Shown in pieces: positions 3,868-49,383 of a stretch of DNA of 58,932 nt. Under the pieces are notes generated by a model that made no database searches, was not told the DNA's origin, and saw only the letters and a program-made list of their open reading frames with translations. The DNA comes from an uncultured Clostridia bacterium (GTDB lineage: Bacteria; Bacillota; Clostridia; TANB77; CAG-508), in the NCBI GenBank assembly GCA_944386745.1, contig CALXCG010000002.1:1-58932 (forward strand), written 5' to 3'. The position numbers and the translations under genes were made by a program. Every line of letters begins with the position of its first letter. Within the stretch, counting starts at the first letter, position 1.

Positions 3868-4560
3868 ATGATAATATATACATCGTATGATTATTTCAAA
3901 TTATATCCATATGTTATAAAACAACGAAATTATGGATTGAAGGATAATAGTCAAAGTTATAGCTTAGAAGTAAGTAGTGGTAAAAAAGAAAAACAATATC
4001 ATAAACATGACAAATTATTTAGAGAAATCTTAAATAGAAATAAAGAAATTGTTAAATTAATTAACAGATATGTAAAACCGAAAAAAGAATTAACTGAAGA
4101 AATGATAGAAAAGTATGATACAAAATTCATAACAACTATCTACGAAAAAAGAGAGGCTGATATAGTATATAAGCTGAAAGGAAAAGAAGTTTTCTTTCTA
4201 ATAGAACATCAAACAAAAGTTGATAAATTAATGTCATATAGAATATTAGAATATAGCTTAGAAATAATTAGGACTAGAATGAAAAATATTAAGGGAAAGA
4301 TAGAAAAGGTAGGAGTTCCAAAAGTAATTCCATTAGTAATTTACACAGGACAGGCAAGATGGACTGCAAAAAATAAATTAGAAGAAGTACAAGTAGAATT
4401 TGAGCATTTCAATGGTATAGATCCAGATTTTGAAAAAGCAAAAAAAGAGGGAAGAGAGAAAGGAATTATAGAAATAGCTAAAAAGATGTTAAATGAAAAA
4501 GTAGACATTGATTTTATTATAAAAATAACAGGATTAAAAAAAGAGCAAATTCTGAATTGA
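3868..4560 (+). CDS. Rpn family recombination-promoting nuclease / PD-(D/E)XK putative transposase
   Basis: HKHDKLFREIL ... FFLIEHQTKVDKLMSYRILEY signature of the YhgA/Rpn family. Confidence 0.7.
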   Translation: MIIYTSYDYFKLYPYVIKQRNYGLKDNSQSYSLEVSSGKKEKQYHKHDKLFREILNRNKEIVKLINRYVKPKKELTEEMIEKYDTKFITTIYEKREADIVYKLKGKEVFFLIEHQTKVDKLMSYRILEYSLEIIRTRMKNIKGKIEKVGVPKVIPLVIYTGQARWTAKNKLEEVQVEFEHFNGIDPDFEKAKKEGREKGIIEIAKKMLNEKVDIDFIIKITGLKKEQILN

Positions 4561-5309: not shown

Positions 5310-8300
5310 TTGAAAACAACAAAAATATTAAAAATAGATGGAACGTTATTAGACAAAGAGCAACTAAATAGGCATTTGCAAAAAATAGCATCAAGTCATA
5401 ACCTAAAAAACAAAAGTGACAAACAAACATATCCTGTACCAATCATGATAGAAAATTATAAAACAATAGAACAAGTATATGAACTATTAAATGAACATTT
5501 AAAACTAGGAATAAGCATACATCCAGCAGGAGAATGGTTACTAGATAACTTCTATATCATAGAACAAACAGTAAAACAAATAGAAAAAGAATTACCACTA
5601 AAAAAATACAAAAACTTTTTAGGGATTGCAAATGGAAAATATAAAGGATTTGCAAGAATCTATGTATTAGCAGCAGAAATAGTAGCATACACAGATAACA
5701 AAATAGAAAAAGAAGGATTAGAAGAAGCATTGCAAAGTTATCAAAGTAAAAAAACACTAAGCATGGAAGAAATTTGGAATATAGGGATATTTTTGCAAAT
5801 ATCAATAATAGAAAATATAAGAGAATTGTGTGAAAGAATATACAGTTCACAAATGCAAAAATTTAAAGCAGAAAATATAGTAGAAAGATTAATTGAAAAC
5901 AAAAACAAAACTAATATAGTGTGTAAAACAAGTGCATGCAAAAAGATGGAAAAAGATAGTTTTCAAGATATGAAATACCCATTTATAGAATACATGTCAT
6001 ATATATTAAAAAGATATGGAAAAAAGGGATATAGTTATTTAAAAGTTTTAGAAGAAGCAGTAGAAATGGCTGGAACAACAGTACAAGATGTGATTAAAAA
6101 AGAACATTTTGACATAGCTGTTAGAAAAGTTAGTATGGGAAATAGTATTACAAGTATAAAGAAAATTCAAAGAATTAATTTCCTAGAAATATTTGAAAAA
6201 ATAAATGGTGTTGAAGAAATTTTAAGACAAGACCCAAGTAACACATATATAAACATGGATAATAAAACAAAGGAATATTATAGAAATGCTATAAAAGAAA
6301 TATCTAAAAAAACCAAGATTTCAGAAATATATATAGCTAGAAAAACACTAGAATTAGCACAAAAACGTTTAGAAGAAATAGAAGGAGATAATAAAGAAAA
6401 CAAAAAATCACATATAGGATATTACTTAATAGATAAAGGAATTGATGAGCTATATACAGTATTAAAATATAAAGAAAAAAATTCAATAAGTCAAAAAGGA
6501 AAAACAAAAATATATATTTCAGCAATTTATATCACAACATTAATCATAGATATAATTATTTCAGGTATTATAAATTTCAAAACTAGCAATTTATGGATAT
6601 CAATATTAACATTTATTATATTTTTTATTCCAATATCAGAAGTAGCAACACAAATAATACAATATATATTAAGTAAAATAGTAAAACCAAAACTAATACC
6701 AAAACTTGATTTAACACAAGGTTTGTCAAAAGAAATGGCAACAATGGTAGTAATTCCAACAATAGTAAAATCAAAAGAAAAAGTGCAAGAACTAATGAGA
6801 AAACTAGAAGTATATTACTTAGCAAATAAAAGTAAAAACTTGTATTTTACTTTACTTGGAGATTGTTCAGAAAGTGATAAAAGAGAAGAAGATTTTGATG
6901 AAGAAGTAATACAAGAAGGTAAAAAATTAGTAAATGAATTAAATAAAAAATACAATGAGAAAATTTTTAACTTTATATATAGAAAACGTATTTGGAATGA
7001 AGGAGAAAATTCATATCTTGGTTGGGAAAGAAAAAGAGGTATGCTTTCACAATTAAATGAATATTTGTTAGGAAATATAAAGAATCCTTTTAGAGAAAAT
7101 ACATTAGAAAATTTAGATAATATGCCAAAAATAAAATATATTATTACTTTAGATGCAGATACTGATTTAATTCTAAATTCAGCATTTGAGTTAATAGGTG
7201 CAATGTCACATATACTAAATAAACCAGTAATAAATCCAACTACAAATACAGTTACAGAAGGATATGGGATACTTCAACCAAGAGTGGGTATTGATTTAGA
7301 TATAAGTTTTAAAACATTATTTACGAAAATATTTGCAGGAGCAGGAGGAATTGACTCATATAGTAACGCAATTTCAGACACATATCAGGATAATTTTAAT
7401 GAGGGGATTTTTACTGGAAAGGGAATTTATGACTTAGAGGTATATTCAAAAGTATTAAAGGGTGAAATTCCAGAAAATACAGTTTTAAGTCATGATTTGC
7501 TTGAGGGGAGTTATTTGAGATGTGGCTTAGCTTCTGATATTTTGCTTATGGATGGATATCCTACAAAATATAATAGTTTTATGACAAGGCTTGCTAGATG
7601 GATTCGTGGAGATTGGCAGATTACAAAATGGATTGGGAATAAGAAATTAAATTTGTTATCAAAATACAAAATTTTTGATAATTTAAGAAGAAGTTTACTA
7701 GAAATTAGTATTATTGTAACAATAATATATACAAGTATTTTGGGGATTATATATAACCAAAAGATTTATGGAATTGTTACATTTGTTTTACTGATTTCTA
7801 TATTGCCATACATTTTAGAATTTTTAAATAGATTGATATTTAAGAAAGAAGGAGAAGAAAAGCAAAAGACTTTTGCTCCAAAAATCACAGGTTTTAAAGG
7901 AACTTTTTTAAGAGCGGTTATAACTTTAGCAGTTTTACCATATAAAGCATATGTGTCAACAAAATCAATTACAAAAACAATATATAGAATGTGTATAAGT
8001 AAAAAGCATCTACTAGAATGGACAACTTCAGAAGAAGCAGAAAAACAGTCAAAATCAAGTTTGGTTTCATACTTTAATCAAATGGCATTTAATGTACTTG
8101 CAGGTGTGACAACAATTGGATTAGGATTTTTGAAACAAAATGGTTTTGCGTGTGTTTTAGGACTTTTATGGATGGTTGCTCCATGTATAATGTGGTATGT
8201 AAGTAGAACAATCGAAAAACATCCTGCAATAAAAAAATTAAATCAAAAAGATAAAGAGTATGTTTTAGAAATTGGTAAAAAGACTTGGAACTTTTTTGAG

Positions 8301-11300
8301 ACTTATTTGACAAAGGAAAATAATTATCTAATATCAGATAATTATCAAGAGGATAGAAAAGAAGAAATAGTACCTAGAACATCATCTACAAATATTGGGT
8401 TATCTCTTTTAGCAGTTATATCTGCTTATGATTTAAAATATATAACTTTTGAAAAAGCAATTAATTTATTAAAAAATATACTTGATAGCGTAGAGTCACT
8501 TCCAAAGTGGAATGGTCATTTATATAACTGGTATCAAATACAGACAAAAGAACCTCTAGTTCCTAGATATATTTCGACAGTTGATAGTGGTAATTTTGTT
8601 GGATATTTGTATGTAGTTAAATCTTTTTTAGAAGAACAAATAAAAAATACAAACAATGAAAACAAAGAAGAAATGGAGGTAAGCGAAAATAAAAATCAAA
8701 TTCTAAGTGAGTTAGTAGAAAAAGTAACCAAACTAATTAATGATACAGACTTTTCATATTTGTACAGCCAAGAGGAGCAAATCTTTTCAATTGGATTTAA
8801 TATCGAAGATAATAAATTAACAAATTCATATTATGATTTACTTGCATCTGAAGCAAGACAAGCAAGTCTAGTTGCAATAGCAAAAAAAGATGTACCTGCT
8901 AAACATTGGAGTTATTTAAGTAGGACTTTGACTAAATTAGGAAAATATAAAGGGTTGATTTCATGGGCTGGTACTGCGTTTGAGTATTTGATGCCTAATA
9001 TAAATATTCCAAGTTATGAAGGAAGTTTATTAGACGAGTCTTGTAAATTCATGATTAAAAGTCAGATGGAATATAGTAAACAATTAAATGTAGCATGGGG
9101 AATTTCAGAAGCAGCTTTTAACCTAAAAGATTTAAAATCAAATTATCAATATAAGGCATTTGGAATACCATGGCTTGGATTAAAAAGAGGTCTTGCAGAT
9201 GAAATGGTTGTATCTAGTTATGGTGGTATTTTGGCAATAAATGAAGTTCCAAAAGAGGAAGTGCAGAATTTAAAAAGATTAGAACAAGAAGGAATGTATG
9301 GAAAATTTGGATTTTATGAATCAATAGATTATACACCAGAAAGAGTAGAAAGAGGGAAGATATCAAGTGTAGTAAAAACATATATGGCGCATCATCAAGG
9401 ACTAATTTTGCTATCAATTAATAATTTATTTAATAACAATATTCTGCAAAAAAGATTTATGAGAAATCCTGAAATTGATGCAGTTAGTATTTTGTTACAA
9501 GAAACAATGCCAGAGACTTTTGTAACAACAAAAGAGAAAAAGGAAAAGGTAGAAAAGCTAGAATACAAAGATTATGAAGATTATATCCAAACAACATATC
9601 AAAAAATAGAAGAAAGATTGGATATTGGAAATGTAATCTCAAATGAAGATTATATCGTTGCAATGAACCAAAAAGGTCAAGGTGTAAGTAGATATAGGGG
9701 AATTGATATAAATAGATTTAAACCTACAAAAGATTATGCACAAGGAATATTTTTTGCAGTTAAGAGTGTAAAAAGTAAAACTTTAATAAGTTCAAATTAT
9801 GGCTTTAATGATGGACAATATCAAATAAGTTTTATGCCAGATAAAGATGAACAAGAAATAAAAAATAATAATTTGAAAGTGAAAATAAATACAACTGTAA
9901 GTTCTAATGAGCCAGTAGAAATTAGAAGATTAATAATAGAAAATCAGGGAAATGAAGATGATATAGTAGAAGTTACTTCATATTTTGAACCAGTATTATC
10001 AAAGAAAGAACAAGATTATGCACATCCAGTGTTTAATAATTTGTTTTTAACTACAAAATATGATGAAAAAACAAATAGTTTAGTAACAACAAGAAAAGTA
10101 AGGGAAAAGAATCAACCTAAAATTACTGTTGCAACAACTTTATCCACAAATAGTGAAACAATTGGGGATTTTGAGTATGAATTAGAAGCGGAAAAGTTTA
10201 CAGGTAGAGGGAATTTAGAAGTTCCAAACATGATTAAAAATTCAATACCTTTTTCTAAAAAAATAGGATTAGTTACAGAACCAATTATTGCAGAGAAGAG
10301 GACAATTAAGGTAAAAGCACAGGAAAAAGTGATTGTAGATTTTATTTTATCAGTAGGAGAAGATGAAAAACAAGTATTAAATCATTTAGAAAAATATAAA
10401 TCAGCAGAAAATGTGAAAAAAGAATTTGAATTATCAAAGGCAAGAGTAGAGGCTGAAAGTAGATATTTAAGAATAAAAGGAAACGAAATTGAAATTTATC
10501 AAAAAATGCTTTCATATATAATTTTTACAAATCCGCTAAGCAGTCAAAGAAAAGAAAAAACAAACCCTCAAATAGTGTTTAAGCAAAGTGATTTATGGAA
10601 GTATGGAATATCAGGTGATTTACCAATTATTCTTGTAAAAATGAGAAATGTAAACGACAAATATGTCATAAAAGAAGTGCTAAAAGCATATGAATTTTTT
10701 AGAACGAAAAATATTGAGGTTGAGATTGTAATATTAGATGAAGAAAAACATAGTTATGAGAACTATGTAAGAGAAGAAATTGAAGGTGCAATTTTAAATT
10801 CACATATGGCATATTTGAAAAGTCAAAAAGGTGGAATTTTTATATTAACAAAGGGAGAAATTGATAAAAAAGATATTCAATTATTAGATTTTATAGCAGA
10901 TATAGTTTTAAATAGTGATAAAGGTGGATTAAAAAATAATATAAAAGATATTGAAGAAAGATTTTTAGATAGTAGAAAAGAAATTGAAGAAGAAAGTCAA
11001 CTTCCACAAGTAATAGATGAAACAGAAGATATAGATTTATTGGAAAATAGGGAAGATTTGAAATACTATAATGAATATGGTGCTTTTTCTCCAGATGGAA
11101 AAGAATATATAATAAAAGTAAACAAAGATAATAGATTGCCAACAGTTTGGAGTCATATTATAGCAAATGAAAAGTTTGGAACAGTAATAACAGAAAATAT
11201 GGGGGGATATAGTTGGTATAAAAATAGTAGACTAAATAGAGTATCAACTTGGGAAAATAATCCAAATTATGATATTCCTTCAGAAGTTATTTATGTGAAA

Positions 11301-13535
11301 GATTTAGAGAATTCTAGAAAATGGTCTTTAGGTCTAAATCCAATGCCAGATAATAAAAACTATAATGTAGTTTATGGTTTTGGTTATGCAAAGTATATTC
11401 ATAAAAGTGATGGACTAGAGCAAGAGTTAGAAGTATTTGTGCCAAATGAAGATTCTTGTAAAATTCAAGTGTTGACTTTAAAAAATACAACGCCAAATAG
11501 AAAAAAATTAAAATTGTATTATTATATGAAACCAACTATTGGTGAAGATGACTTGAAAACAGAAGGATATATAGATTTACAATTTGATAAAAATAACAAT
11601 GTGCTATATGCAAGAAACAGATATGCGGAAGAATCATCATACATGATAAATTATGTATCGAGTAGCGAGAAAATAAATTCATATACAGGTGATAAAAAAT
11701 ATTTCTTAGGAAAGGGCGGACTAGATAATCCGCAAGGATTAAATAAAGTTAGCCTAAATAGGGAAAATTCTATTGGAAAGCAGGCATGTATTGCATATGA
11801 AATAGAAGTTGAATTAGAAAGTTATAGTGCAAAAGAAATTTCATTTGTTCTAGGTTCAGATGAAAAATTAATTGATTGTAAAAATACAGCATATAAATAT
11901 CAAAAAATTGCAAATTGTAAGCAGGAATTAACAGATGTAAAAAATCAATGGAAAGAAAGATTAAATAGGTTGCAAGTTTATACGCCATTAGAATCAACAA
12001 ATATATTATTAAATGGATGGCTTGTTTATCAAACAATTACAAGTAGATTGTTAGGCAGAAGTGGATATTATCAATCTGGAGGAGCTTATGGATTTAGAGA
12101 CCAGCTTCAAGATACTTTAGCTTTAAAATATATAAATCCAGAATTCTTGAAAAATCAAATAATCAAACACAGCAAACATCAATTTATAGAAGGAGATGTA
12201 GAACATTGGTGGCATGATGAAACAGGTAGAGGTATTAGAACAAGATTTTCAGATGATTTGCTATGGTTGCCATATTTAGTGTTAGAATATATCAAATTTA
12301 CAGGTGATGAGAGTATTTTAGAAATAGAAACACCATATATTGAAGGAAAAGAACTAGAAGAAAGTCAAGATGAAAGATATGATAAATATCCAGAGAGTAA
12401 AGAAAAAGGAACAATTTATGAGCATTGTATAAAAGCTATTGAAAGAAGTTTCAATTTTGGAGAAAATGGATTGCCTAAGATTGGCTCAGGTGATTGGAAT
12501 GATGGATTTAGTACAGTTGGAAATAAAGGTAAAGGCGAAAGTGTGTGGCTTGGATTTTTCTTATATACTATTTTAGATGGATTTATTGAGATCGTGAAAG
12601 AAAAAGAACCGGTAGAAAACGATAAAGAGAAAGTAGGAAAAATTGAAAACGATGAAAATGATATTGAAGAAGGTGCTGAAAAAATTGTTGAAAATAAAAC
12701 AGAAAAATACGAGAGAATAAAGAATGAATTAAAAAGAGCATTAAATACAAATGGATGGGACGGAAGATGGTATAAAAGGGCATTTATGGATGATGGAAAT
12801 GTACTAGGAAGTATGGAAAATGAAGAATGTAGAATAGATAGCATTGCACAAAGTTGGAGTATCATTTCAAATGCAGGAGATAATGACAAAAAATATATAT
12901 CAATGGAAAGTCTAGAAAATCATTTAGTAGATAAAGAAAATGGAATAATCAAGCTATTAGATCCACCATTTGAAAAAAGCAAATTAGAGCCTGGATATAT
13001 AAAATCATACTTGCCAGGAGTTAGAGAAAATGGAGGACAATATACTCACAGTTCATGTTGGGTAATAATAGCTGAAAGTATTTTAGGCTTTGGAGATAAG
13101 GCACTAGAGTGGTATAGAATGATAAATCCAATAGAACATTCAAGAACAAAAGATGCATGTAACAAATATAAAGTAGAGCCATATGTAATTCCAGCAGATA
13201 TATATGGAGCAAACAACTTAGCTGGAAGAGGTGGCTGGACTTGGTATACAGGCTCATCAAGTTGGTATTATAAAGCTGGAATAGAATATATATTGGGATT
13301 AAAAGTTGAAAATGGGTATTTATCAATATTGCCATGTATACCTAAAAATTGGAAAGAATACCAGATGCAATATAAGTGGCAAAATAGTATTTATAAAATA
13401 ACTGTTAAAAATCCTGATGGTAAAAATATTTTTGAAAGTGGTACTAGCAAAGTTACTTTAAATGGAAATGAGGTTGAAAATCACATCAAACTAGACGGAA
13501 GTAGAAATGAATATGAGATTGAAGTGAGGATTTAG
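5310..13535 (+). CDS. Cyclic beta-1,2-glucan synthase-like giant protein (GT84 glycosyltransferase + TM region + alpha/alpha-6 domain + GH94 phosphorylase domain), TTG start
   Basis: 2741 aa. LDADT glycosyltransferase region, multiple TM helices, and C-terminal GH94 motifs GYYQSGGAYGFRDQLQD and GSGDWNDG. RBS aaggag lies before the TTG. Confidence 0.85.
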   Translation: MKTTKILKIDGTLLDKEQLNRHLQKIASSHNLKNKSDKQTYPVPIMIENYKTIEQVYELLNEHLKLGISIHPAGEWLLDNFYIIEQTVKQIEKELPLKKYKNFLGIANGKYKGFARIYVLAAEIVAYTDNKIEKEGLEEALQSYQSKKTLSMEEIWNIGIFLQISIIENIRELCERIYSSQMQKFKAENIVERLIENKNKTNIVCKTSACKKMEKDSFQDMKYPFIEYMSYILKRYGKKGYSYLKVLEEAVEMAGTTVQDVIKKEHFDIAVRKVSMGNSITSIKKIQRINFLEIFEKINGVEEILRQDPSNTYINMDNKTKEYYRNAIKEISKKTKISEIYIARKTLELAQKRLEEIEGDNKENKKSHIGYYLIDKGIDELYTVLKYKEKNSISQKGKTKIYISAIYITTLIIDIIISGIINFKTSNLWISILTFIIFFIPISEVATQIIQYILSKIVKPKLIPKLDLTQGLSKEMATMVVIPTIVKSKEKVQELMRKLEVYYLANKSKNLYFTLLGDCSESDKREEDFDEEVIQEGKKLVNELNKKYNEKIFNFIYRKRIWNEGENSYLGWERKRGMLSQLNEYLLGNIKNPFRENTLENLDNMPKIKYIITLDADTDLILNSAFELIGAMSHILNKPVINPTTNTVTEGYGILQPRVGIDLDISFKTLFTKIFAGAGGIDSYSNAISDTYQDNFNEGIFTGKGIYDLEVYSKVLKGEIPENTVLSHDLLEGSYLRCGLASDILLMDGYPTKYNSFMTRLARWIRGDWQITKWIGNKKLNLLSKYKIFDNLRRSLLEISIIVTIIYTSILGIIYNQKIYGIVTFVLLISILPYILEFLNRLIFKKEGEEKQKTFAPKITGFKGTFLRAVITLAVLPYKAYVSTKSITKTIYRMCISKKHLLEWTTSEEAEKQSKSSLVSYFNQMAFNVLAGVTTIGLGFLKQNGFACVLGLLWMVAPCIMWYVSRTIEKHPAIKKLNQKDKEYVLEIGKKTWNFFETYLTKENNYLISDNYQEDRKEEIVPRTSSTNIGLSLLAVISAYDLKYITFEKAINLLKNILDSVESLPKWNGHLYNWYQIQTKEPLVPRYISTVDSGNFVGYLYVVKSFLEEQIKNTNNENKEEMEVSENKNQILSELVEKVTKLINDTDFSYLYSQEEQIFSIGFNIEDNKLTNSYYDLLASEARQASLVAIAKKDVPAKHWSYLSRTLTKLGKYKGLISWAGTAFEYLMPNINIPSYEGSLLDESCKFMIKSQMEYSKQLNVAWGISEAAFNLKDLKSNYQYKAFGIPWLGLKRGLADEMVVSSYGGILAINEVPKEEVQNLKRLEQEGMYGKFGFYESIDYTPERVERGKISSVVKTYMAHHQGLILLSINNLFNNNILQKRFMRNPEIDAVSILLQETMPETFVTTKEKKEKVEKLEYKDYEDYIQTTYQKIEERLDIGNVISNEDYIVAMNQKGQGVSRYRGIDINRFKPTKDYAQGIFFAVKSVKSKTLISSNYGFNDGQYQISFMPDKDEQEIKNNNLKVKINTTVSSNEPVEIRRLIIENQGNEDDIVEVTSYFEPVLSKKEQDYAHPVFNNLFLTTKYDEKTNSLVTTRKVREKNQPKITVATTLSTNSETIGDFEYELEAEKFTGRGNLEVPNMIKNSIPFSKKIGLVTEPIIAEKRTIKVKAQEKVIVDFILSVGEDEKQVLNHLEKYKSAENVKKEFELSKARVEAESRYLRIKGNEIEIYQKMLSYIIFTNPLSSQRKEKTNPQIVFKQSDLWKYGISGDLPIILVKMRNVNDKYVIKEVLKAYEFFRTKNIEVEIVILDEEKHSYENYVREEIEGAILNSHMAYLKSQKGGIFILTKGEIDKKDIQLLDFIADIVLNSDKGGLKNNIKDIEERFLDSRKEIEEESQLPQVIDETEDIDLLENREDLKYYNEYGAFSPDGKEYIIKVNKDNRLPTVWSHIIANEKFGTVITENMGGYSWYKNSRLNRVSTWENNPNYDIPSEVIYVKDLENSRKWSLGLNPMPDNKNYNVVYGFGYAKYIHKSDGLEQELEVFVPNEDSCKIQVLTLKNTTPNRKKLKLYYYMKPTIGEDDLKTEGYIDLQFDKNNNVLYARNRYAEESSYMINYVSSSEKINSYTGDKKYFLGKGGLDNPQGLNKVSLNRENSIGKQACIAYEIEVELESYSAKEISFVLGSDEKLIDCKNTAYKYQKIANCKQELTDVKNQWKERLNRLQVYTPLESTNILLNGWLVYQTITSRLLGRSGYYQSGGAYGFRDQLQDTLALKYINPEFLKNQIIKHSKHQFIEGDVEHWWHDETGRGIRTRFSDDLLWLPYLVLEYIKFTGDESILEIETPYIEGKELEESQDERYDKYPESKEKGTIYEHCIKAIERSFNFGENGLPKIGSGDWNDGFSTVGNKGKGESVWLGFFLYTILDGFIEIVKEKEPVENDKEKVGKIENDENDIEEGAEKIVENKTEKYERIKNELKRALNTNGWDGRWYKRAFMDDGNVLGSMENEECRIDSIAQSWSIISNAGDNDKKYISMESLENHLVDKENGIIKLLDPPFEKSKLEPGYIKSYLPGVRENGGQYTHSSCWVIIAESILGFGDKALEWYRMINPIEHSRTKDACNKYKVEPYVIPADIYGANNLAGRGGWTWYTGSSSWYYKAGIEYILGLKVENGYLSILPCIPKNWKEYQMQYKWQNSIYKITVKNPDGKNIFESGTSKVTLNGNEVENHIKLDGSRNEYEIEVRI

Positions 13536-13589
13536 GGATTTAGGGGACGGTCCTAAAAATCCCCGCTTTTAGGGATTTTGGGACGGACC
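13534..13589 (+). repeat. GGGATTT-AGGGGACGG hairpin repeat, double unit (copy R1)
   Basis: agggatttaggggacggtcctaaaaatccccgcttttagggattttgggacggacc. It overlaps the TAG stop of the glucan synthase gene. Confidence 0.9.
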
Positions 13590-13608
13590 TTTTATCCTTT
13601 TATACTTT

Positions 13609-13792
13609 AATGATAATATTTTAATAATTTATTTCATTTCTCGGCTAACATTACATCTTGAATTCATTCTAAAATTATCATGTAGGCACCTCGAAACCGC
13701 AAGTTTGAGATTCTCCTACCTGATAATTCAAGAATGTATAACAAGATTTCATTCGCATTCGAAATTTCAAAAATTATTAAGATATTATCATT
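13609..13792. ncRNA. Rod-shaped conserved intergenic element, copy A (candidate structured ncRNA or BIME/MITE module)
   Basis: Closing stem 13609-13630/13771-13792. Conserved blocks GGCTAACATTACA (13643-13655), TAGGCACCTC..GCAAGTTTGAGATTCTCCTA (13683-13718) and ATTTCATTCGCATTCGAAA (13746-13764). The second copy is at 35829-36000. Confidence 0.5.
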
Positions 13793-13814
13793 CTATAATT
13801 AAATCATGATTAGA

Positions 13815-13870
13815 GGTCCGTCCCTTATTCCCTGTTTTTAGGGATTTTTAGGACCGTCCCCTAAATCCCT
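13815..13870 (-). repeat. GGGATTT-AGGGGACGG hairpin repeat, double unit, inverted (copy R2)
   Basis: The reverse complement matches R1. It overlaps the TAG stop of the minus-strand deacetylase gene. Confidence 0.9.
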
Positions 13871-14678
13871 ATTCGTAAAAATTTTTAAATGTATATCCTT
13901 GTTCCTTTAGGTAATCTATAGAATCTTTTAAAACTAAATCTGTTTGATTAACATCAGAAGTATCATGCATTAAAATAACTAAAGTACCTTTATTTTTAGT
14001 AGATTGTTTTAAGTTATTTAATAACTCTTGATTACTGTATTTTTTCTCAGAGTCTTTATTTAAGCAATTCCAATCAATATATGTATAATCAATATTAGAA
14101 AGAAGAGTAACATATTCTTCTTTCTTTGATTTATAAACAGATGACATATATCCATTAGGAAAGCGAAATACATGAGAACAGTAATTATCAATTCCAATTG
14201 CTTTACTAATTTCTTTATCAGTAGATGTGATTTCATTTATAAAAGCATCTGCATTTGAATATAATTTGCTATTATTATGACTGTAACCATGATTTGCAAT
14301 ATAATGTCCTTCTTCATATGCTCGTTTTACTAATTCAGGATGTTCTTTTACATGTTTTCCAATAACAAAAAAACTAGCTTTAACATTTTCTTCATTTAAT
14401 ATATCAAGGATTTTACTTGTAGATTTTAAAGTAGGACCATCATCAAAAGTTAAATATGCAATTTTCTCTTTTTGATTAGTTAGATTTTGTATTTTGCTAT
14501 AAAAATTTTCTAGTTCATTGATACTGGTTTGAATAGATTTACTGCTATTATTCATATTAGAATTTTTATCTACTGAATTGTTATTAAAATTTAATAAAAG
14601 GAAGATTATAGCGAATACTGTAATAAAGAAGATTAAAGTGATAATAATATTTTTTCTTTTTATAATAATAAATTTCAT
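13869..14678 (-). CDS. Polysaccharide deacetylase (NodB homology domain) with N-terminal membrane anchor
   Basis: LTFDDGP, NHGYSHN and LMHD motifs. Confidence 0.85.
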   Translation of the reverse strand: MKFIIIKRKNIIITLIFFITVFAIIFLLLNFNNNSVDKNSNMNNSSKSIQTSINELENFYSKIQNLTNQKEKIAYLTFDDGPTLKSTSKILDILNEENVKASFFVIGKHVKEHPELVKRAYEEGHYIANHGYSHNNSKLYSNADAFINEITSTDKEISKAIGIDNYCSHVFRFPNGYMSSVYKSKKEEYVTLLSNIDYTYIDWNCLNKDSEKKYSNQELLNNLKQSTKNKGTLVILMHDTSDVNQTDLVLKDSIDYLKEQGYTFKNFYE

Positions 14679-14814: not shown

Positions 14815-15201
14815 ATGAAATATACATATAATAAATTGGTAAGAGATAAGATTCCAGCAAATATTGATAGTATAACAGGTAGAAAAGCAAATTGGAGAAT
14901 AATGGATGATGAAGAATATATAAAAGAATTAAATAAGAAATTATTAGAAGAAGCACACGAATTTATAGAAGAAAACGCTGTTGAGGAATTAGCGGATATT
15001 ATGGAAGTAATACAAAGTATTATGAGAGCAAAAAATATTAGTTATGAAGAATTAAAGAAAGTGCAAGCACTTAAAAGGGAACAAAAAGGTGGATTTTATA
15101 ATAGAGTATATTTAATTGATGTTGAACAAGATAAAGTAGATGAAAGAGAAGAACAAGAAATGAAAAAAGATTGGAGAAAAAATAGTTTAGATGAGAGATG
15201 A
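14815..15201 (+). CDS. MazG-like / phosphoribosyl-ATP pyrophosphohydrolase-like NTP pyrophosphatase
   Basis: YNKLVRDKIP ... EELADIMEV ... KGGF pattern. The ATG at 14815 is better spaced from gggag than the ORF-track start at 14806. Confidence 0.65.
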   Translation: MKYTYNKLVRDKIPANIDSITGRKANWRIMDDEEYIKELNKKLLEEAHEFIEENAVEELADIMEVIQSIMRAKNISYEELKKVQALKREQKGGFYNRVYLIDVEQDKVDEREEQEMKKDWRKNSLDER

Positions 15202-15229
15202 TTTTTTCTCCGTCCCCAAATCATCTCTC
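15193..15229. terminator. Bidirectional hairpin between convergent genes, loop carries CCGTCCCC (GGGGACGG)
   Basis: gagagatgattt / aaatcatctctc stem. The stem arms overlap both stop codons. Confidence 0.55.
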
Positions 15230-15911
15230 AAATTGCACTGGCTTCTGATTGCGAAATATAGCCATTTTCTACCATTTTTTCTAAGACATGTTGCTGTCTT
15301 TTTTTAGCCAAGTCAGGATTTACAGTTGGAGCATAAACTGATGGAGCATTAGGAACTCCTGCAAGCATTGAAGATTCATCTAAATTTAAATCTTTGGGTT
15401 CTTTATTATAATATCCCATACTTGCATCATAGATTCCATAGTATCCTTCTCCAAAATAACAAGTATTAACATATAATGCTAAAATTTCATTTTTACTATA
15501 ATTTTTTTCAATATCATATGCAGCTAAGATTTCTCCTAGTTTTCTTGAAAATGTTTCTTCTTGTGAAAATACAACGTTTTTCGCAACTTGTTGAGTTATG
15601 GTACTACCACCTTCTTGTAATTCCCAGTTTGTAATATTAACCCATAATGCTCTTGCAATTCCAATTGGATCAATTGCACCATGGTCGTAAAATCTATGGT
15701 CTTCAACTGCAACAACTGCATTTCTATAATCTTCTGATAAGTTATCAAAGCTTGTGTAATGTTCATCACTTGTTACCTCTTCTATTCTAGTAAGCAATGG
15801 CTTTTCTTTTAAAGCAGAAGAGTATGCACTATATCCTAGTATAAACATTAGACCACAAGCAACTATTATTAAGATTAATAATATTAGTAATATTTTTCTA
15901 AATATTTTCAT
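15228..15911 (-). CDS. Monofunctional peptidoglycan glycosyltransferase (GT51)
   Basis: EDHRFYDHGAIDPIGIARA and GGSTITQQVAKN motifs; N-terminal TM. Confidence 0.85.
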   Translation of the reverse strand: MKIFRKILLILLILIIVACGLMFILGYSAYSSALKEKPLLTRIEEVTSDEHYTSFDNLSEDYRNAVVAVEDHRFYDHGAIDPIGIARALWVNITNWELQEGGSTITQQVAKNVVFSQEETFSRKLGEILAAYDIEKNYSKNEILALYVNTCYFGEGYYGIYDASMGYYNKEPKDLNLDESSMLAGVPNAPSVYAPTVNPDLAKKRQQHVLEKMVENGYISQSEASAI

Positions 15912-18392: not shown

Positions 18393-19628
18393 ATGAGTTA
18401 TATAAATGAAAATTTTTTAAATATGCAAGATAGCTACTTATTTTCAACAATAGCAAAAAAAGTAGCAAAATACACAGAAGAAAATCCAGACAAAAAAATC
18501 ATAAAATTAGGAATAGGAGATGTTACAAAGCCAATAGTACCAGCATGTATAGAGGCAATGCATAAAGCGGTAGATGAAATTGGAACACAAGAAGGATTTA
18601 AAGGATATGGACCAGAACAAGGATATGAATTTTTAAGAAATGCAATAGTTCAAAATGATTATAAAGCAAGAGGAATAGATATCAAAGCAGATGAAATCTT
18701 TGTATCAGATGGTGCAAAATGTGATTGTGGAAATATAGTAGATATATTTGCTGAGGATAATAAAGTTGCAATTACAGATCCAGTATATCCAGTATATTTA
18801 GACACAAATGTAATGTCAGGAAGAAGTGGAAAATATAACAAAGAAAAAGACATGTATGAAAATATAGTATATTTACCAGTAACAGCTGAAAATAATTTCA
18901 AGCCAGAATTACCAAAAGAAAAGGTAGATATGATATATCTATGTTTCCCAAATAATCCAACTGGAACAGTATTAACAAAAGAAGATTTGAAAGTTTGGGT
19001 AGACTATGCTAAAGAAAATAATAGTATTATTCTATATGATGCAGCATATGAAGCATTTATAACAGAAGAAGATATACCACATAGTATCTATGAAGTAGAA
19101 GGGGCAAAAGATGTTGCAATAGAATTTAAGAGCTTTTCAAAAACAGCAGGCTTTACAGGTGTTAGATGTGCATATGTAGTAATTCCACACACAGTAAAAG
19201 GATACACAAAGGCTGGAGAAGAAATTGAATTAAATAAATTATGGAATAGAAGAACTTGTACAAAATTTAATGGAGTATCATATGTTGTACAAAGAGCTGC
19301 AGAAGCTACATATTCAGAAGAAGGTAAGAAACAAATTAGAGCTAATATTGAAAGCTACTTAGAAAATGCAAAAATAATAAAAAATGGATTAGAGGATGCA
19401 GGATTTACAACATATGGAGGTGTTAATTCACCATATATTTGGTTACAAGTACCTAAAGGCATGACTTCATGGGAGTTCTTTGATAAATTACTAGAAGAAG
19501 TAAATGTTGTTGGAACTCCAGGAAGTGGATTTGGACCACATGGTGAAGGCTATTTTAGATTAACTGCTTTTGGTACTAAAGAAAATTCAATAGAAGCAAT
19601 TGAAAGAATAAAGAATTGGAGGGATTAG
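18393..19628 (+). CDS. dapL: LL-diaminopimelate aminotransferase
   Basis: [30 protein letters not shown] and [16 protein letters not shown] at 18393 follows aaaggag. Confidence 0.85.
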
Positions 19629-19674
19629 GGGGACGGTCCTCTAAATCCCGTTTTTTAGGGATTTAGGGACGGAC
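19620..19674 (+). repeat. GGGATTT-AGGGGACGG hairpin repeat, double unit (copy R3)
   Basis: agggattagggggacggtcctctaaatcccgttttttagggatttagggacggac. It encodes the last two codons (RD) and the TAG stop of dapL. Confidence 0.9.
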
Positions 19675-19841
19675 ATAAAAATCCAAGTTTTCATTGATTA
19701 GATAACGAACTTGAAAATCACTGCTTTTAGATATTTAGGCTTACTCTTAAAACGATAAATTAAAAGATTTCGTAATAAATTACGAAGTCTTTTATAATGG
19801 AAAAAACAAGAAAATATTAAAAACAAATTTTCGCTAAAAGG

Positions 19842-21229: not shown

Positions 21230-22459
21230 ATGAATTCAAATGAGCCATTAGCATTTAGAATTAGACCAAGAACATTAGATGAATATGTAGGACAAGAACA
21301 TGTTTTGGGCAAAGACAAAATATTATATAGAACAATAAAGGCAGATAGATTATCAAGTATCATTCTATTTGGACCTCCTGGATGTGGAAAAACATCACTT
21401 GCAAGAGTAATAAGTGAAACAACAAAATATAAATTCTATAAAATAAATGCAGTAACATCAGGAGTTGCAGATATTAAAAGAGTAATAGAAGAAACTAAGA
21501 ATTTCATGTTAAATCCAACAGGAAAAAGTATTTTATTTATAGATGAAATTCATAGATTTAATAAATTGCAACAAGATGCTTTACTTCCATATGTAGAAAA
21601 TGGAACAATAATTTTAATAGGTGCGACAACGGAAAATCCATATTTTGAAGTAAATAAGGCTTTAATTTCAAGGTCAATGGTAATAAAATTAAATCCATTA
21701 ACAGAAGAGAACATTTTTCAAATACTAAAGAATGCAATCGAAAGAAAAGACGGTTTAGGAGATTATAATATAAAAATAGAAGATGAAACATTAAAAAAAT
21801 TGGCAATAATTAGTGGTGGAGATGTTAGAACAGCATTAAATGGTTTAGAAGTAGCAGTATTGACAACCAATATGGATAGTGATGGATATATACATATAAC
21901 AGATGAAGTAATAAAAAATAGTGTTCAATCAAAAAAAGCAATATTTGATAAAAATGGAGAAGAGCATTATGATAATATAAGTGCATTTATTAAATCAATG
22001 AGAGGCTCAGACCCAGATGCTGCAATATTTTATTTAGCAAGAGCAATAAATGGTGGAGAAGATCCAATGTTTTTAGCAAGAAGAATAGTTATTTGTGCAT
22101 CAGAAGATGTAGGAATGGCAAATCCAAATGCATTAGTTGTAGCAAATGCAGCAATGCAAGCAGTGCATATGATTGGGATGCCAGAAGCAAGAATATTACT
22201 TGCAGAAGCAGCTGTATATGTTGCAACATCAAAAAAATCAAATGCATCATATATGGCAATAAATAAAGCTATTCAAGATGTTCAAACAAAAGATACTGGA
22301 GAAGTACCAATGCATATTAGGAATGCACCAATAGAAAAAATGAAAGAATTAGGATATCATGAAGGATATTTGTATCCACATGATTTTCCAGGTCATTACG
22401 TAGAACAACAATATTTACCAGATAAGATGCTAGGAACAAAATACTATGTTGAAGATTAA
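21230..22459 (+). CDS. rarA: Replication-associated recombination protein A (AAA ATPase)
   Basis: [30 protein letters not shown], and C-terminal [23 protein letters not shown]. Confidence 0.9.
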
Positions 22460-22493
22460 TGTCGCATTGGGGACGTTTCTCATGCGACATTAA
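22456..22493 (+). terminator. Hairpin after rarA with GGGGACG in the loop
   Basis: ttaatgtcgcat / atgcgacattaa stem, loop tggggacgtttctc. Confidence 0.5.
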
Positions 22494-22554
22494 TAGTATT
22501 TATTGAATAGAATAAAATAAATTGGATAACCTACTTAGTAAGTGGGTTTTTATT

Positions 22555-22936
22555 ATGGAGAAAAGAAAAATAAAATTTTCTATAAAAGACATTTTAAAGC
22601 AAAGTATAATTGGATTTTTAGCAGGTGTAATTAGTGGATTATTTTCAACAGGTGGTGGAATGATTTTAGTTCCAGCTTTTATTTATCTTTTAAAATTAGA
22701 TAACACGAAAGCAAGAGGAACATCAGTATTTTGTATTTTGCCAATGGTGGTTACAAGTGGAATCTTTTATTACAAAGAAAATTATATAGAATGGAACATA
22801 GCTATTCTTTGTGCAATAGGTGGAGCAATAGGTGGATATATACGGAGCAAAATTGTTAAAAAAATTACCAGAAAGAGTTTTGAAAATTGCTTTTACGATA
22901 TTTTTAGTTTATGCATCATATAAAATGATAATATAA
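22555..22936 (+). pseudogene. TSUP/TauE-family half-size membrane transporter with a 1-nt frameshift near its 3' end
   Basis: GGGMILVPAF motif. After GGYI (22840-22842) the conserved C-terminus GAKLLKKLPERVLKIAFTIFLVYASYKMII is read in the +1 frame and ends at 22936. Confidence 0.6.
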
Positions 22937-22949
22937 AGTAGGTTTTTTT

Positions 22950-23315
22950 ATGATAGAGATTTTGATAGGAGTTGTATCTGGAATCGTAAGTGGAACAGGA
23001 ATGGGAGGAGGAACAATATTAATTTTTCTTCTTACATTTTTTATGGGTGTAGAACAACATATAGCGCAGGCAACAAATTTGATATTTTTTATTCCAACTT
23101 CAATAGTTGCAATAATTGTTAATTTAAAAAATAAAAATATATATTTGAGATCAGCTTTAATTATTTCAATATTTGGAATATTAGGGGCGATTATAGGAGC
23201 AAATATTTCAATAAATATTGACGTGAAAATTTTAAAAAGATTGTTCGGAATTTTTCTAGCAATAATTGCTATTCATGAAATATATACCATTGTAAAATCA
23301 TACAAAAAAGCATAA
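22950..23315 (+). CDS. TSUP/TauE-family half-size membrane transporter
   Basis: GMGGGTILIF motif, 4 TM segments. The C-terminus parallels the frameshifted tail of the upstream paralogue. Confidence 0.7.
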   Translation: MIEILIGVVSGIVSGTGMGGGTILIFLLTFFMGVEQHIAQATNLIFFIPTSIVAIIVNLKNKNIYLRSALIISIFGILGAIIGANISINIDVKILKRLFGIFLAIIAIHEIYTIVKSYKKA

Positions 23316-38653: not shown

Positions 38654-38707
38654 AGGGATTTAGGGGACGGACCTAAAATCCCTCTTTTTAGGGATTTGGG
38701 GACGGAC
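38654..38707 (+). repeat. GGGATTT-AGGGGACGG hairpin repeat, double unit (copy R4)
   Basis: agggatttaggggacggacctaaaatccctctttttagggatttggggacggac followed by ttttaatttt. Confidence 0.9.
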
Positions 38708-38868
38708 TTTTAATTTTGATTTAAGGATAAAATTTAATTTAACTTTAGAATAGACTACTGATTAAACTTGAAATTCTGAAAGTTTTGTATTATAATAGTG
38801 GACATAAATTGGTTGAAGTGTTTGAGTAAAAATCAATTTATAAATATGAATAAGTAGGAGGAGTAAAA

Positions 38869-40131: not shown

Positions 40132-40151
40132 GGACCGTCCCCCTAATCCCT
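40132..40151 (-). repeat. Single GGGATT-AGGGGGACGGTCC unit (copy R5) between pflB and pflA
   Basis: The reverse complement agggattagggggacggtcc is identical to the first unit of R3. Confidence 0.85.
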
Positions 40152-45041: not shown

Positions 45042-45069
45042 TTGACATTTTTTAGTAATAATATATAAT
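45042..45069 (+). promoter_or_regulatory. Candidate sigma-A promoter of adhE
   Basis: TTGACA, 16-nt spacer, TATAAT. The -35 is embedded in the 3' arm of a hairpin (45012-45052). Confidence 0.5.
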
Positions 45070-45104: not shown

Positions 45105-47717
45105 ATGGCAGAAGTAAGCGCACAAGAAGAACAAAAAGTTCAAAAAATGATAAATGAACTTGTAGAAAAAGCAAAAATAGCATCACAGGAGTACATGAAA
45201 TTAGACCAAGAAGCAGTAGATAAAATAACAAAAGCAATGTCAATGGCAGGGCTAGAACATCATATGGAACTTGCAAAATTAGCAGTAGAAGAAACAAAAA
45301 GAGGAATATATGAAGATAAAATAACAAAGAACATGTTTGCAACAGAATATGTATATCATAGCATTAAATATGAAAAAACAGTAGGTATAATTAGTGAAAA
45401 TGAAGAAGAAGGATATGTAGAAATAGCAGAACCAGTAGGAATAATTGCAGGAGTTACGCCTGTTACAAATCCAACTTCTACAACAATGTTTAAATCAATA
45501 ATAGCAGCAAAAACAAGAAATGTAATAATATTTGGATTTCATCCATCTGCACAAAAATCAAGTAGTGCTGCAGCAAAAATTTTAAGAGATGCAGCAATTA
45601 AAGCAGGAGCTCCAGAAAATTGTATATTATGGATTGAAGAGCCATCAATAACTGCAACAAGAATGTTAATGAATCATCCTGATGTAAACTTAATACTTGC
45701 AACAGGTGGAACAGGAATGGTTAGGTCAGCATATTCTTGTGGAAAACCAGCATTAGGAGTAGGACCTGGAAATGTACCTTGCTATATTGATAAAACAGCA
45801 AAATTAAAAACATCAGTAAATGATTTAGTAATGTCTAAAGCATTTGATAATGGAATGATATGTGCATCAGAACAAGCAGTATTAGTTGATAGAGAGATTT
45901 ACGAAGAATTTGAAAAATTAATGAGAGAAGCAGGATGCTATTTTGTAAATCCAGAAGAAAAGAAAAAATTACAAGATAGCATGTTTGATTATACAGAAGA
46001 ATATGGGTATAAATTAAAATCACATGTTCCAGGACAATCACCATATACAATTGCAAAAGAGGCAGGATTTGAGATACCAGAAGACACAAAAGTAATAGTT
46101 GTATATGAGGAAGGAATCGGAAGAGAATATCCATTTTCAAAAGAAAAATTAAGCCCAGTTTTAACATATTATATAGTTGAAAACGAAGATGAAGGAATAA
46201 AAAAATCAGAACAATTGATTGAATTTGGTGGATTAGGGCATTCAGCAGTTATTCATTCTGAAAATAGGGATACAATATTAAGATTTTCAGAAACTATGAA
46301 AGCAGGAAGAATAATTGTAAATTCTCCATCTACTCATGGAGCAATTGGTGATATATATAACACAAATATGCCATCATTAACACTTGGATGTGGTTCATTT
46401 GGTGGAAATTCAACAACGGCTAATGTATCATCAGTAAATTTAATTAATATAAAAAGAGTAGCGAAAAGGAGAGTTAATATGCAATGGTTTAAAATTCCAG
46501 AAAAAATATATTTTGAAGCAGGTTCAATTCAATACTTAGAAAAAATGCCAGATATAACAAGAGCATTTATTGTAACAGATGAAGGAATGGTAAAATTAGG
46601 ATATGTAGATAAAATTCTATATCATTTAAGAAAAAGACAACAATATGTACATTCAGAAATATTTAGTGAAGTAGAATCAGATCCATCATTTGATACAATC
46701 AAAAAAGGTGTAGAGCTAATTAAAAACTTTAATCCTGATGTAATAATTGCATTAGGAGGAGGAAGTCCAATAGATGCTGCAAAAGGCATGTGGCTATTTT
46801 ATGAACATCCTGAAGCAGATGCTGAAGGTTTAAAATTGAAATTTATGGATATTAGGAAAAGAACATATAAATTTCCTAAGTTAGGAACAAAATGTAAAAT
46901 GGTAGCAATACCAACAACATCAGGAACAGGTTCAGAAGTAACATCATTTGCGGTAATTACTGATAAAGAGAAAAATAAAAAATATCCATTAGCAGATTAT
47001 GAGCTAACACCAGATGTTGCAATAGTAGATCCAGATTTAGTAATGAGTTTGCCAAAATCAGTTACAGCAGATACAGGAATGGATGTTTTAACACATGCAA
47101 TTGAGGCATATGTATCAAATATGGCATCAGATTACACAGATGGATTAGCAGAAAAGGCAGTAGAACTTGTATTTGAAAATTTACAAGAAGCATATGAACA
47201 TGGAGATAATAAACTAGCAAGAGAAAAGATGCATAATGCAAGTACAATAGCAGGAATGGCATTTACAAATGCATTTTTAGGAATTAACCATTCATTAGCA
47301 CATAAAATAGGTGGAGAGTTCCATTTACCACATGGAAGAATAAATGCAATTTTATTACCATATGTAATAAGATACAATAGTTCAAAACCAAGTAAATTTG
47401 TATCATTTCCTAAATATGAATATTTCATAGCAAATCAAAAATATTATAGATTAGCTAAAAAGGCAGGATTAAAAGCAGATACAGTAGAAGAGGGAATCAA
47501 TAGTTTAATTGAAAAAATCATAGAAATGAACAAAAAATTAAATATTCCAAGCACATTTAAAGAAGCTGGAATAGATGAACAGGAATTTTTAGCAAAAGTA
47601 GATATGTTAGCTGATAGAGCGTTTGAAGACCAATGTACAACAGCAAATCCACGCGTGCCTCTAGTAACAGAGTTAAAACAAATATTACTAGATTCATACT
47701 ATGGAAAAAGGGATTAG
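45105..47717 (+). CDS. adhE: Bifunctional acetaldehyde-CoA / alcohol dehydrogenase
   Basis: 870 aa. N-terminal aldehyde dehydrogenase domain (CASEQ active site) and C-terminal iron-ADH domain ([10 protein letters not shown]). Confidence 0.95.
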
Positions 47718-47763
47718 GGGACGGTCCTAAAAATCCCTGCTTTTAGGGATTTAGGGACAGACC
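47709..47763 (+). repeat. GGGATTT-AGGGGACGG hairpin repeat, double unit (copy R6)
   Basis: agggattaggggacggtcctaaaaatccctgcttttagggatttagggacagacc. It encodes the final RD and the TAG stop of adhE. Confidence 0.9.
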
Positions 47764-47900
47764 TTGAAAAAATAAGGGAAAATAGATATAAAATTATAAA
47801 ATCAAGTAGTTCTGTAACTTTTTTGTGAATTGCTTGATTTTTTTTATATGTGAATATATAATTTATTGGACACAAAAATTTAGAAAGCAAGGTGAAATGT

Positions 47901-49327: not shown

Positions 49328-49383
49328 GGTCCGTCCCTAAATCCCTAAAAGCAGGGATTTTTAGGACCGTCCCCAAAATCCCT
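49328..49383 (-). repeat. GGGATTT-AGGGGACGG hairpin repeat, double unit, inverted (copy R7)
   Basis: The reverse complement matches R6. It ends 5 nt from the asnS stop codon. Confidence 0.9.

Follow-up and report, generated by a model that had tools for sequence, protein, structure and literature searches.

We describe a previously unnamed family of short hairpin repeats, found in a stretch of 58,932 nucleotides (nt) of chromosomal DNA with approximately 27% GC from an uncultured Clostridia bacterium (contig CALXCG010000002.1; "the window"). The family is real, resembles the repetitive extragenic palindromic (REP) sequences, and is specific to a lineage, a clade of gut Clostridia/Bacillota of approximately 27% GC. 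Its members lie at or in the stop codons of ordinary genes and point in the direction of the gene. We are inclined, with somewhat more confidence than doubt, to read them as elements that work as sense RNA and form the first structure of the 3' untranslated region (UTR), tied to the stop codon. Three observations lead to this view: the orientation of the element follows the gene, the sense RNA folds better than the antisense RNA, and it is the stop codon, seen by translation alone, that sets the position.

Anatomy and copies of the repeat

The basic unit, S, is a hairpin of approximately 30 nt, AGGGATT-AGGGGACGGTCCTAA-AAATCCCT, or in full nAGGGATT(T)-AGGGGACGGTCCTAA-AAATCCCTn'. It folds into a lower stem of 8 bp (AGGGATT(T)/AAATCCCT), an AAA bulge, an upper stem of 5 bp (UAGGG/UCCUA) and the apex GACGG; since the apparent 15-nt loop thus pairs internally, S is an almost complete hairpin. 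The base preceding AGGG is variable, with a tendency to pair with the one that follows CCCT, the flanking bases being complementary as C..G in 34, T..A in 21 and G..C in 8 of 128 cases. The element closes all three reading frames.

Family-wide counts refer to the window and to the loci listed by a scan with GGGGACGGWCCTAAAAATCCC, taking one genome per species; "L" and a number denotes one such locus beyond the window. The scan gave at least 100 loci, and the matches listed lie almost all in approximately ten metagenome-assembled genomes (MAGs) of uncultured gut Clostridia/Bacillota. The family is abundant in at least ten such MAGs, and one listed match, in a Pyrinomonadales MAG, has no stem and is due to chance. 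The collection holds 151 S units, which reduce to 85 distinct sites if distinguished by their upstream flank, and 40 of these sites are common to two or more MAGs. The commonest form (81 of the 151) is the A-type doublet, in which S is followed by a link of 6-8 nt and a module M (AGGGATTTAGGGACGGACC). M corresponds to the 5' portion of another direct copy of the unit at an offset of 36 nt, and the second 3' arm is kept in one window copy, described below, and in one copy of L080. Single units number 42. In the 14 B-type elements S is followed by a link of 6-8 nt and an inverted S, giving a perfect palindrome of approximately 68 nt (−59 kcal/mol). The link is found in both orientations (TAAAAAC or GTTTTTA) and is A-rich in 49 and T-rich in 32 doublets. 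It does not act as a fast loop-inversion switch, because orthologues differ in it at merely 2 of 31 multi-genome sites.

The window contains seven copies in all, of which six are doublets and one is a truncated unit, located at the coordinates and on the strands given by the original prediction, an annotation made from the letters of the DNA. A profile hidden Markov model built from 104 distinct units of the window and the related loci returned these seven places in the window and no others. GGGGACGGNCC with at most one mismatch matches 11 times in the window and AGGGATTTAGGGGACGG with at most three mismatches 8 times, where 0.03 matches are expected for each. The motif GGGGAC, suspected from the start to be in excess, occurs 11 times in the window compared to 2.9 expected, and 8 of the 11 lie inside the repeats.

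On the plus strand, the A-type doublet at 13534..13589 (S 13534-13563, link CGCTTTT 13564-13570, M 13571-13589) follows a GH94 gene of 2741 amino acids (aa), whose stop codon TAG (13533-13535) overlaps the first two bases of the element. The A-type doublet at 13815..13870 is on the minus strand (S 13841-13870, link TAAAAAC, M 13815-13833), and here the stop TAG (13869-13871) of a polysaccharide deacetylase gene overlaps the first element bases. A tandem S-S' copy occupies 19620..19685 on the plus strand, with S at 19620-19649, the link GTTTTTT and, at 19657-19685, a second unit that retains a 3' arm; the stop TAG (19626-19628) of the LL-diaminopimelate (LL-DAP) aminotransferase gene lies within S and the protein ends in -RD. 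The copy had initially been given as ending at 19674, and the 3' arm of the second unit carries it to 19685. The plus-strand A-type doublet at 38654..38708 is a variant with GGACC in S, beginning 5 nt past the stop TAG (38646-38648) of a Replic_Relax-domain gene. At 40132..40151 on the minus strand lies the truncated unit, 2 nt past the pflB stop TAG (40154-40156) and upstream of the ribosome-binding site of pflA; it had been listed as a single unit, and it consists of the first 20 nt of S, ends after GGTCC and has no 3' arm. The remaining A-type doublets are found at 47709..47763 on the plus strand, where the adhE stop TAG (47715-47717) lies within S and the protein ends in -KRD, and at 49328..49383 on the minus strand, 5 nt past the stop TAA (49389-49391) of the asparaginyl-tRNA synthetase gene (asnS). 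All seven copies are oriented like the adjoining gene, and the first base overlaps the stop codon or lies at most 5 nt past it, as had been claimed. In four of the seven, element bases form all or part of the stop TAG.

An assembly artefact, which had been named as a possible source of the pattern, is rejected because the repeat occurs in many independent assemblies and in RNA contigs. The whole window gave no match in Rfam at the gathering score, and at E-value thresholds the segment 13450-13950 gave sub-threshold matches of chance level alone. A full-text literature search for the core sequences returned unrelated papers only, mostly on viruses and reverse genetics, and no copy of the repeat was found in viral contigs, phage records or plasmid records. 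The 21-mer used for the scan is a specific marker for the clade. The repeat also matters for annotation, since approximately 40% of the host proteins have a C-terminus encoded by the element and both contigs and transcript assemblies break at its copies.

Position relative to stop codons

To place the elements relative to genes, same-strand open reading frames (ORFs) of at least 90 codons were considered, with positions counted from the element start. At 38 of the 50 distinct doublet sites the end of such an ORF falls between −12 and +6 nt, and none of the 50 has an ORF end at a distance of 7-40 nt. The original prediction had called for further copies and an enrichment at gene 3' ends, and both are seen here. 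Canonical terminators (hairpin plus T-run) in the same DNA start at a median of 27 nt past the stop, with approximately one fifth of them at +6 or closer. Of the doublets, 54 share the strand of their upstream gene and 9 lie on the opposite one; for those placed between co-directional genes the ratio is 37 to 4. Orientation tracks transcription and not replication, because the minus-strand copies of the window follow minus-strand genes. The B-type elements either span the interval from the stop (+1 to +5) to the start codon that follows (15-21 nt) or are placed between convergent stop codons.

The tie to the stop codon extends to its identity. TAG accounts for 82% of the stops beside an element compared to 24% in other genes, because the element reads AGG GAT TAG, A GGG ATT TAG (the T-variant) or nTAG at the foot of the hairpin. 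As AGG GAT TAG is supplied by the element, approximately 40% of the non-redundant host proteins have -RD as their last two residues. The relatives of the LL-DAP aminotransferase end in ...ERIKNW with assorted short tails, and the protein of the window ends in ...NWRD.

In the sense orientation of the upstream gene the element would be the first structure of the 3' UTR, so near to the stop, which would mostly be part of it, that a terminating ribosome would have to enter it. This positional rule (at the stop, on the sense strand, often donating the stop and the -RD tail) is clean enough to make the idea of an action on the terminating ribosome directly testable.

A hairpin immediately 3' of a UAG codon could also represent a recoding signal of the PYLIS or SECIS kind that causes read-through, and S contains CGGUC, which we take to resemble the apical loops of SECIS elements. 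We regard this as highly improbable: homologues stop at this same position and have tails that are short and variable, TAA and TGA stops occur too, the register of the stop varies from −11 to +6, and the hosts are ordinary housekeeping genes. The architecture and the gene context speak against this explanation, which we reject together with that of a CRISPR.

RNA folding and transcription termination

The six doublets of the window have predicted folding energies of −22 to −27 kcal/mol as sense RNA (z-scores of −1.9 to −4.0) and −14 to −25 kcal/mol as antisense RNA. Among 78 distinct doublets the sense strand is the more stable one in 77, with a mean of −24.2 compared to −18.9 kcal/mol, a gap that is due to G.U pairs. 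The anatomy described at the outset is correct: a pair of direct modules flanks a central AAAATCCC that is able to pair on either side, and GGTCC/GGACC lengthens the stem. The proposal of two mutually exclusive hairpins is borne out by the folds. In 76 of 81 doublets the minimum-energy fold is the second hairpin, in which the central AAATCCC pairs with the downstream GGGATTT; it extends outward via GGUCC:GGACC and UUAGGG:CCUUAA and leaves the first arm, which holds the stop codon, unpaired. S alone has approximately −12 kcal/mol, and during transcription this first hairpin can be the first to form.

In single units the stem is extended by AAAC/GTTT, the mean energy is −15.8 kcal/mol, a T-rich tail follows in 71%, and another terminator lies downstream in merely 2 of 18 cases. 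Single units look and behave like intrinsic terminators. This raises the question whether all forms are Rho-independent terminators that share their sequence by chance, an explanation which the singles would fit and which might account for the drop in RNA depth past the adhE element, where no other terminator is present. We consider it unlikely. T-rich tails follow only 31% of the doublets, and a consensus terminator scan does not call the doublets. A canonical terminator lies downstream of 40% of them compared to 37% of genes without an element, with the same result for either orientation of the link; as this frequency is that of the background, doublets do not replace terminators, and the terminator explanation is rejected for them. 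The inverted dimers sit within operons between a stop and the next ribosome-binding site. The LL-DAP aminotransferase (DapL) gene of the window has, in addition to the element, a hairpin with T-run approximately 130 nt further on, which was seen by eye and is not called by the scan.

In the favoured reading, that of an RNA element at the start of the 3' UTR, the extended stem and U-run of single units would act as intrinsic terminators, and doublets would refold into the longer imperfect hairpin of approximately −24 kcal/mol that lacks a U-tract. Doublets would then most likely serve as a barrier to 3' exonucleases, or as a structure that defines the 3' end, or would slow the terminating ribosome in the manner of E. 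coli REPs that lie close to a stop.

That the repeat is transcribed is seen in four metatranscriptomes of pig and chicken gut, the assembled contigs of which contain it. Just past the adhE and asnS elements the RNA contig depth falls from approximately 10-30 to 0-8, and no other terminator precedes the next promoter-like site at 47834 behind adhE. This depth evidence is suggestive, as the contigs break at repeats and one of them reads through.

Upstream of adhE, the window has a perfect match to a sigma-70-type promoter (TTGACA-16-TATAAT) at 45042-45069. The longest adhE RNA contig starts at 45057 and ends within the repeat at 47735.

Conservation, polymorphism and the question of mobility

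At orthologous sites the elements are 93-95% identical (S having been ascertained by an exact 21-mer), compared to 78-89% for the coding flanks and 68-72% for the downstream DNA. The sites also show presence/absence polymorphism, as the original prediction had suggested looking for: filled and empty orthologous sites were both found. L041 carries a doublet plus 50 nt at a place where, in L083, just AAAAAAAG separates the corresponding stop from the following −35 box, and the pair differs by the element and these 50 nt with no duplication. At the end of the DapL gene the element is present in the window and in L102; in L101, L103 and L104 (proteins 88-92% identical) the site is empty and a canonical terminator is found. 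Two independent insertions at this gene end were considered and dismissed: L102 can be derived from the window by a 15-nt deletion and one substitution, and since a deletion between AATTG repeats would yield it, L102 is not counted as an insertion of its own. At several sites one genome has a single unit where another has a doublet, and the pair at 13534 and 13870 of the window corresponds in L036 to one S that is shared by the same convergent genes.

Such polymorphism is what a selfish or neutral miniature mobile DNA would leave, of the REPIN type or like a miniature inverted-repeat transposable element (MITE), if it were mobilised in trans by a transposase with its gene elsewhere in the genome and owed its place at the stop to an insertion preference combined with purifying selection in a compact genome, rather than to a function for the host. 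We consider this a serious rival, although a distinctly less probable one than an RNA element at the stop. The exchange of single units and doublets at one site fits it, as does the resemblance of the inverted dimers to REPINs. An insertion into the last codons of a gene would be tolerated because the element closes all three frames, and in the empty site the stop is just 8 nt from the next promoter, so that the neutral target space is small. This explanation accounts for the polymorphism, but not easily for the empty zone of 7-40 nt past the stop, although the terminators of the same DNA leave a median of 27 nt, nor for elements that across species are better conserved than the intergenic DNA around them. 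The strong orientation bias of the doublets (54 to 9) is also at odds with it.

The RAYT or IS200-like partner that had been proposed as a check did not turn up: in the 787 kb covered by the partner-gene searches (the window and 100 loci) no IS200/RAYT or Y1 motif was found, and clustering gave no multi-copy gene. Among the window ORFs scanned there is no Y1_Tnp domain; the window does have a YhgA-like Transposase_31 ORF and two serine recombinases. No target-site duplication accompanies the element, the flanks of which are complementary.

Two further observations were made at copies of the repeat. In L033, at approximately 5980-6350 on the minus strand, a group II intron (RF02001 with 119 bits, RF01998 with 49 bits) sits inside the M module of a doublet, with the junction GGGATTTGGGGA|GTGCGAC, and the orthologous element in L075 is intact. 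By analogy to the terminator hairpins used by class C introns, the repeat may serve as a homing site for group II introns.

Between the two inward-facing S units of the window, at 13590-13814 (core 13628-13775, minus strand), lies a conserved module of approximately 147 nt that is also found in L019, L022, L041, L047, L049, L062 and L095, with several copies per genome. Its predicted fold is a long, rod-like hairpin with 44 pairs, of which 11 show compensatory changes, and the G.U pattern favors the minus strand of the window. Its ends and apex are conserved, and both flanks are near-identical and promoter-like. Its RNA contig depth exceeds that of the flanking genes (X3 contig 13562-13858, depth 19), and Rfam has no match to the module. 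It is a candidate for a new small RNA or a miniature element.

Hairpin families sharing the GGGGAC apex

The apex of S recurs in hairpins with other stems. An F2 hairpin at 22457..22497 on the plus strand of the window (TAATGTCGCAT-TGGGGACGTTTCTC-ATGCGACATTA) has a GGGGACG apex on a different stem, and the stop TAA of an MgsA-like ATPase gene forms part of this stem. A second hairpin with the same apex, at 15186..15230 on the minus strand (TGA-GAGATGATT-TGGGGACGGAGAAAA-AATCATCTCTC), abuts a transglycosylase gene, the stop TGA of which starts the stem. In the loci, F2 (ATGTCGCAT-TGGGGACGTTTCTC-ATGCGACAT) has 28 copies and F3 (GGTCAGTTTGGGGACAGGTTCGGACTGACC-ATTTTTGG-...TTTAGGGACGCCAC, also written GGTCAGTT...) has 23. 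S, F2, F3 and minor families have unrelated stems and share the apex (T/A)GGGGAC(G/A) as well as a second GGGAC approximately 34-36 nt downstream. Both F2 and F3 abut stop codons or lie inverted just upstream of ribosome-binding sites. In the approximately 0.79 Mb covered, GGGGAC[G/A] occurs 244 times, nearly all of them in such hairpins, where a rough estimate from base composition expects few.

The shared apex is an argument for either a common ancestry of the families or a recognition motif for a factor. If the latter, the elements could represent a bipartite site for a trans-acting RNA-binding protein or a DNA hairpin-binding enzyme, which would read the GGGGAC(G) apex and a GGGAC exactly 36 nt downstream while the stems are mere scaffolds. 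We hold this to be possible but rather doubtful. It would be in agreement with the apex and second module common to at least three families of unrelated stem, with the 36-nt offset from GGGAC to GGGAC in 68 of 75 S doublets, with the concentration of GGGGAC[G/A] in hairpins and with an apex that is more conserved than the stems; in addition, the elements weakly resemble the GGA-loop small RNA RsmY (18 bits, E = 0.027), a match far below the Rfam gathering score. On the other side, no candidate protein was found; a CsrA motif scan gave no CsrA-like ORF in the DNA covered, which is uninformative given the small coverage. The shared apex could also reflect the common descent of related repeat families, and the motif does not keep the same register to the apical stem from one family to the next.

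With equal reserve one may speculate about a lineage-specific system for handling mRNA ends, in which a factor reads the GGGGAC(G) apex together with the GGGAC 36 nt downstream in a position placed for the terminating ribosome, S, F2 and F3 having converged on this signal or kept it. If true, the bipartite signal would link the termination of translation to the formation of 3' ends or to the decay of mRNA, and would be a bacterial analogue of the organellar 3'-end elements defined by RNA-binding proteins. The occurrence of the GGGGAC apex across hairpin families is a hint towards such a recognition factor.

Points that weigh against an RNA function at the stop codon

Several points weigh against our preferred interpretation, that of a sense RNA element at the stop. 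Approximately a quarter of the doublet sites do not lie at a stop, some of them inverted just upstream of a ribosome-binding site. Much of what is seen would also be expected if the element were purely selfish and had an insertion bias. While the sense strand folds better in 77 doublets, one must keep in mind that the gap is a property of one consensus and therefore one observation, not 77 independent ones. No covariation stands behind the GGTCC:GGACC extension, and two copies have GGACC in S without compensation. One sequencing run has a contig that reads through the adhE element (47718-47865). The loci were picked by an exact 21-mer from S, which inflates the conservation of S, and many sites are orthologous and hence non-independent. 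Finally, the gene calls are ORF heuristics.

Gene content of the window

The gene content of the window is ordinary (GH94 glucan enzyme, DAP pathway, ruvA, pflBA, adhE, asnS, pseudouridine synthases), with two serine recombinases and a YhgA-like transposase ORF at its left end. The recombinases are large and adjacent (Resolvase, Recombinase and Zn ribbon domains), and together with an amidase and the YhgA-like (Transposase_31) ORF, a group located at 19-2913 and 3868-4557, they may represent the end of an integrated element. The 2741-aa ORF at 5310-13535 carries a glucoamylase-like domain in addition to GH94 supersandwich and catalytic domains. Its resemblance is to a cyclic beta-1,2-glucan synthase or phosphorylase, an unusual enzyme for a gut Bacillota genome that is small and low in GC. 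At 22522-23312 two adjacent ORFs (133 and 121 aa) match first the C-terminal and then the N-terminal half of a TauE/SafE exporter, the gene for which looks split or rearranged.

Comparison with known systems

The protection of transcripts against 3' exonucleases by a hairpin is one of the two classical roles of REPs. The other is an effect on translation, reported for REPs that lie within 15 nt of the stop, as many of them do: in E. coli, ribosomes stall at REPs this near to the stop and expression is reduced, which is the nearest experimental precedent for the present family (Liang et al. 2015, as cited in PMC12306157). REP and BIME sequences are found in Enterobacteria and Pseudomonas, and REPINs consist of two inverted REPs that are mobilised by RAYT (PMC3116915, PMC3337134, PMC3479197). 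Such repeats have been characterised mainly in Proteobacteria, and the present family adds one from low-GC gut Bacillota (chicken, pig and human-type metagenomes).

The assignment to a REP/BIME-like class outside the named families, proposed in the original prediction, agrees with what we observe, as the repeat is interspersed, high in copy number, hairpin-forming and extragenic, occurs in inverted pairs and is absent from Rfam and the literature. Its hairpin of approximately 30 nt is present in 7 copies per 59 kb and in at least 100 loci, and the 14 B-type elements form one long hairpin each from an inverted pair, although the direct S+M form is commoner. Like the REP/BIME/REPIN sequences, which are imperfect palindromes of 20-40 nt with hundreds of copies, the present repeats are extragenic, lie in transcribed 3' UTRs and between operon genes, occur as singles and as inverted pairs in long hairpins, and persist for long at orthologous sites. 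Unlike them, they have no GTAG/GGAG tetranucleotide at the 5' foot of the hairpin (units start with nAGGGATT), no RAYT was found in 787 kb, and the direct S+M form dominates; the family is strictly sense-oriented, supplies the stop codon itself and has a low-GC Bacillota host.

With intrinsic terminators the single units share a GC-containing hairpin and a U-run directly after the gene. A sequence kept across dozens of unrelated genes and species sets the family apart from them, as do doublets and inverted dimers, which have no U-tract and are accompanied by canonical terminators as often as the background would have it. Integron attC sites or cassettes were discarded as an explanation, since the hosts are housekeeping genes (adhE, pflB, asnS, dapL, GH94) that are scattered and have promoters of their own, and the window ORFs scanned include no integron integrase. 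The terminal inverted repeats and direct target-site duplication of MITEs are not seen either, the flanks being complementary and not duplicated.

As in the mycobacterial interspersed repetitive units (MIRUs) and the Rickettsia palindromic elements, the repeat overlaps stop or start codons or is read as protein and adds coding bases. MIRUs, however, are tandem direct repeats with small ORFs for translational coupling, whereas the present element is a hairpin, and the Rickettsia elements insert in frame inside genes, whereas here just 2-9 codons and the stop stem from the element. The Correia elements of Neisseria, the BOX, RUP and SPRITE elements of the pneumococcus and ERIC are likewise small, non-autonomous, transcribed intergenic repeats whose RNA folds alter mRNA processing or stability. 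They are at least 100-150 bp long, with terminal inverted repeats and, in Correia, a TA duplication, and have no tie to the stop codon, whereas the present family shares no sequence similarity with them, shows no target duplication and is tied to the stop codon of its host gene.

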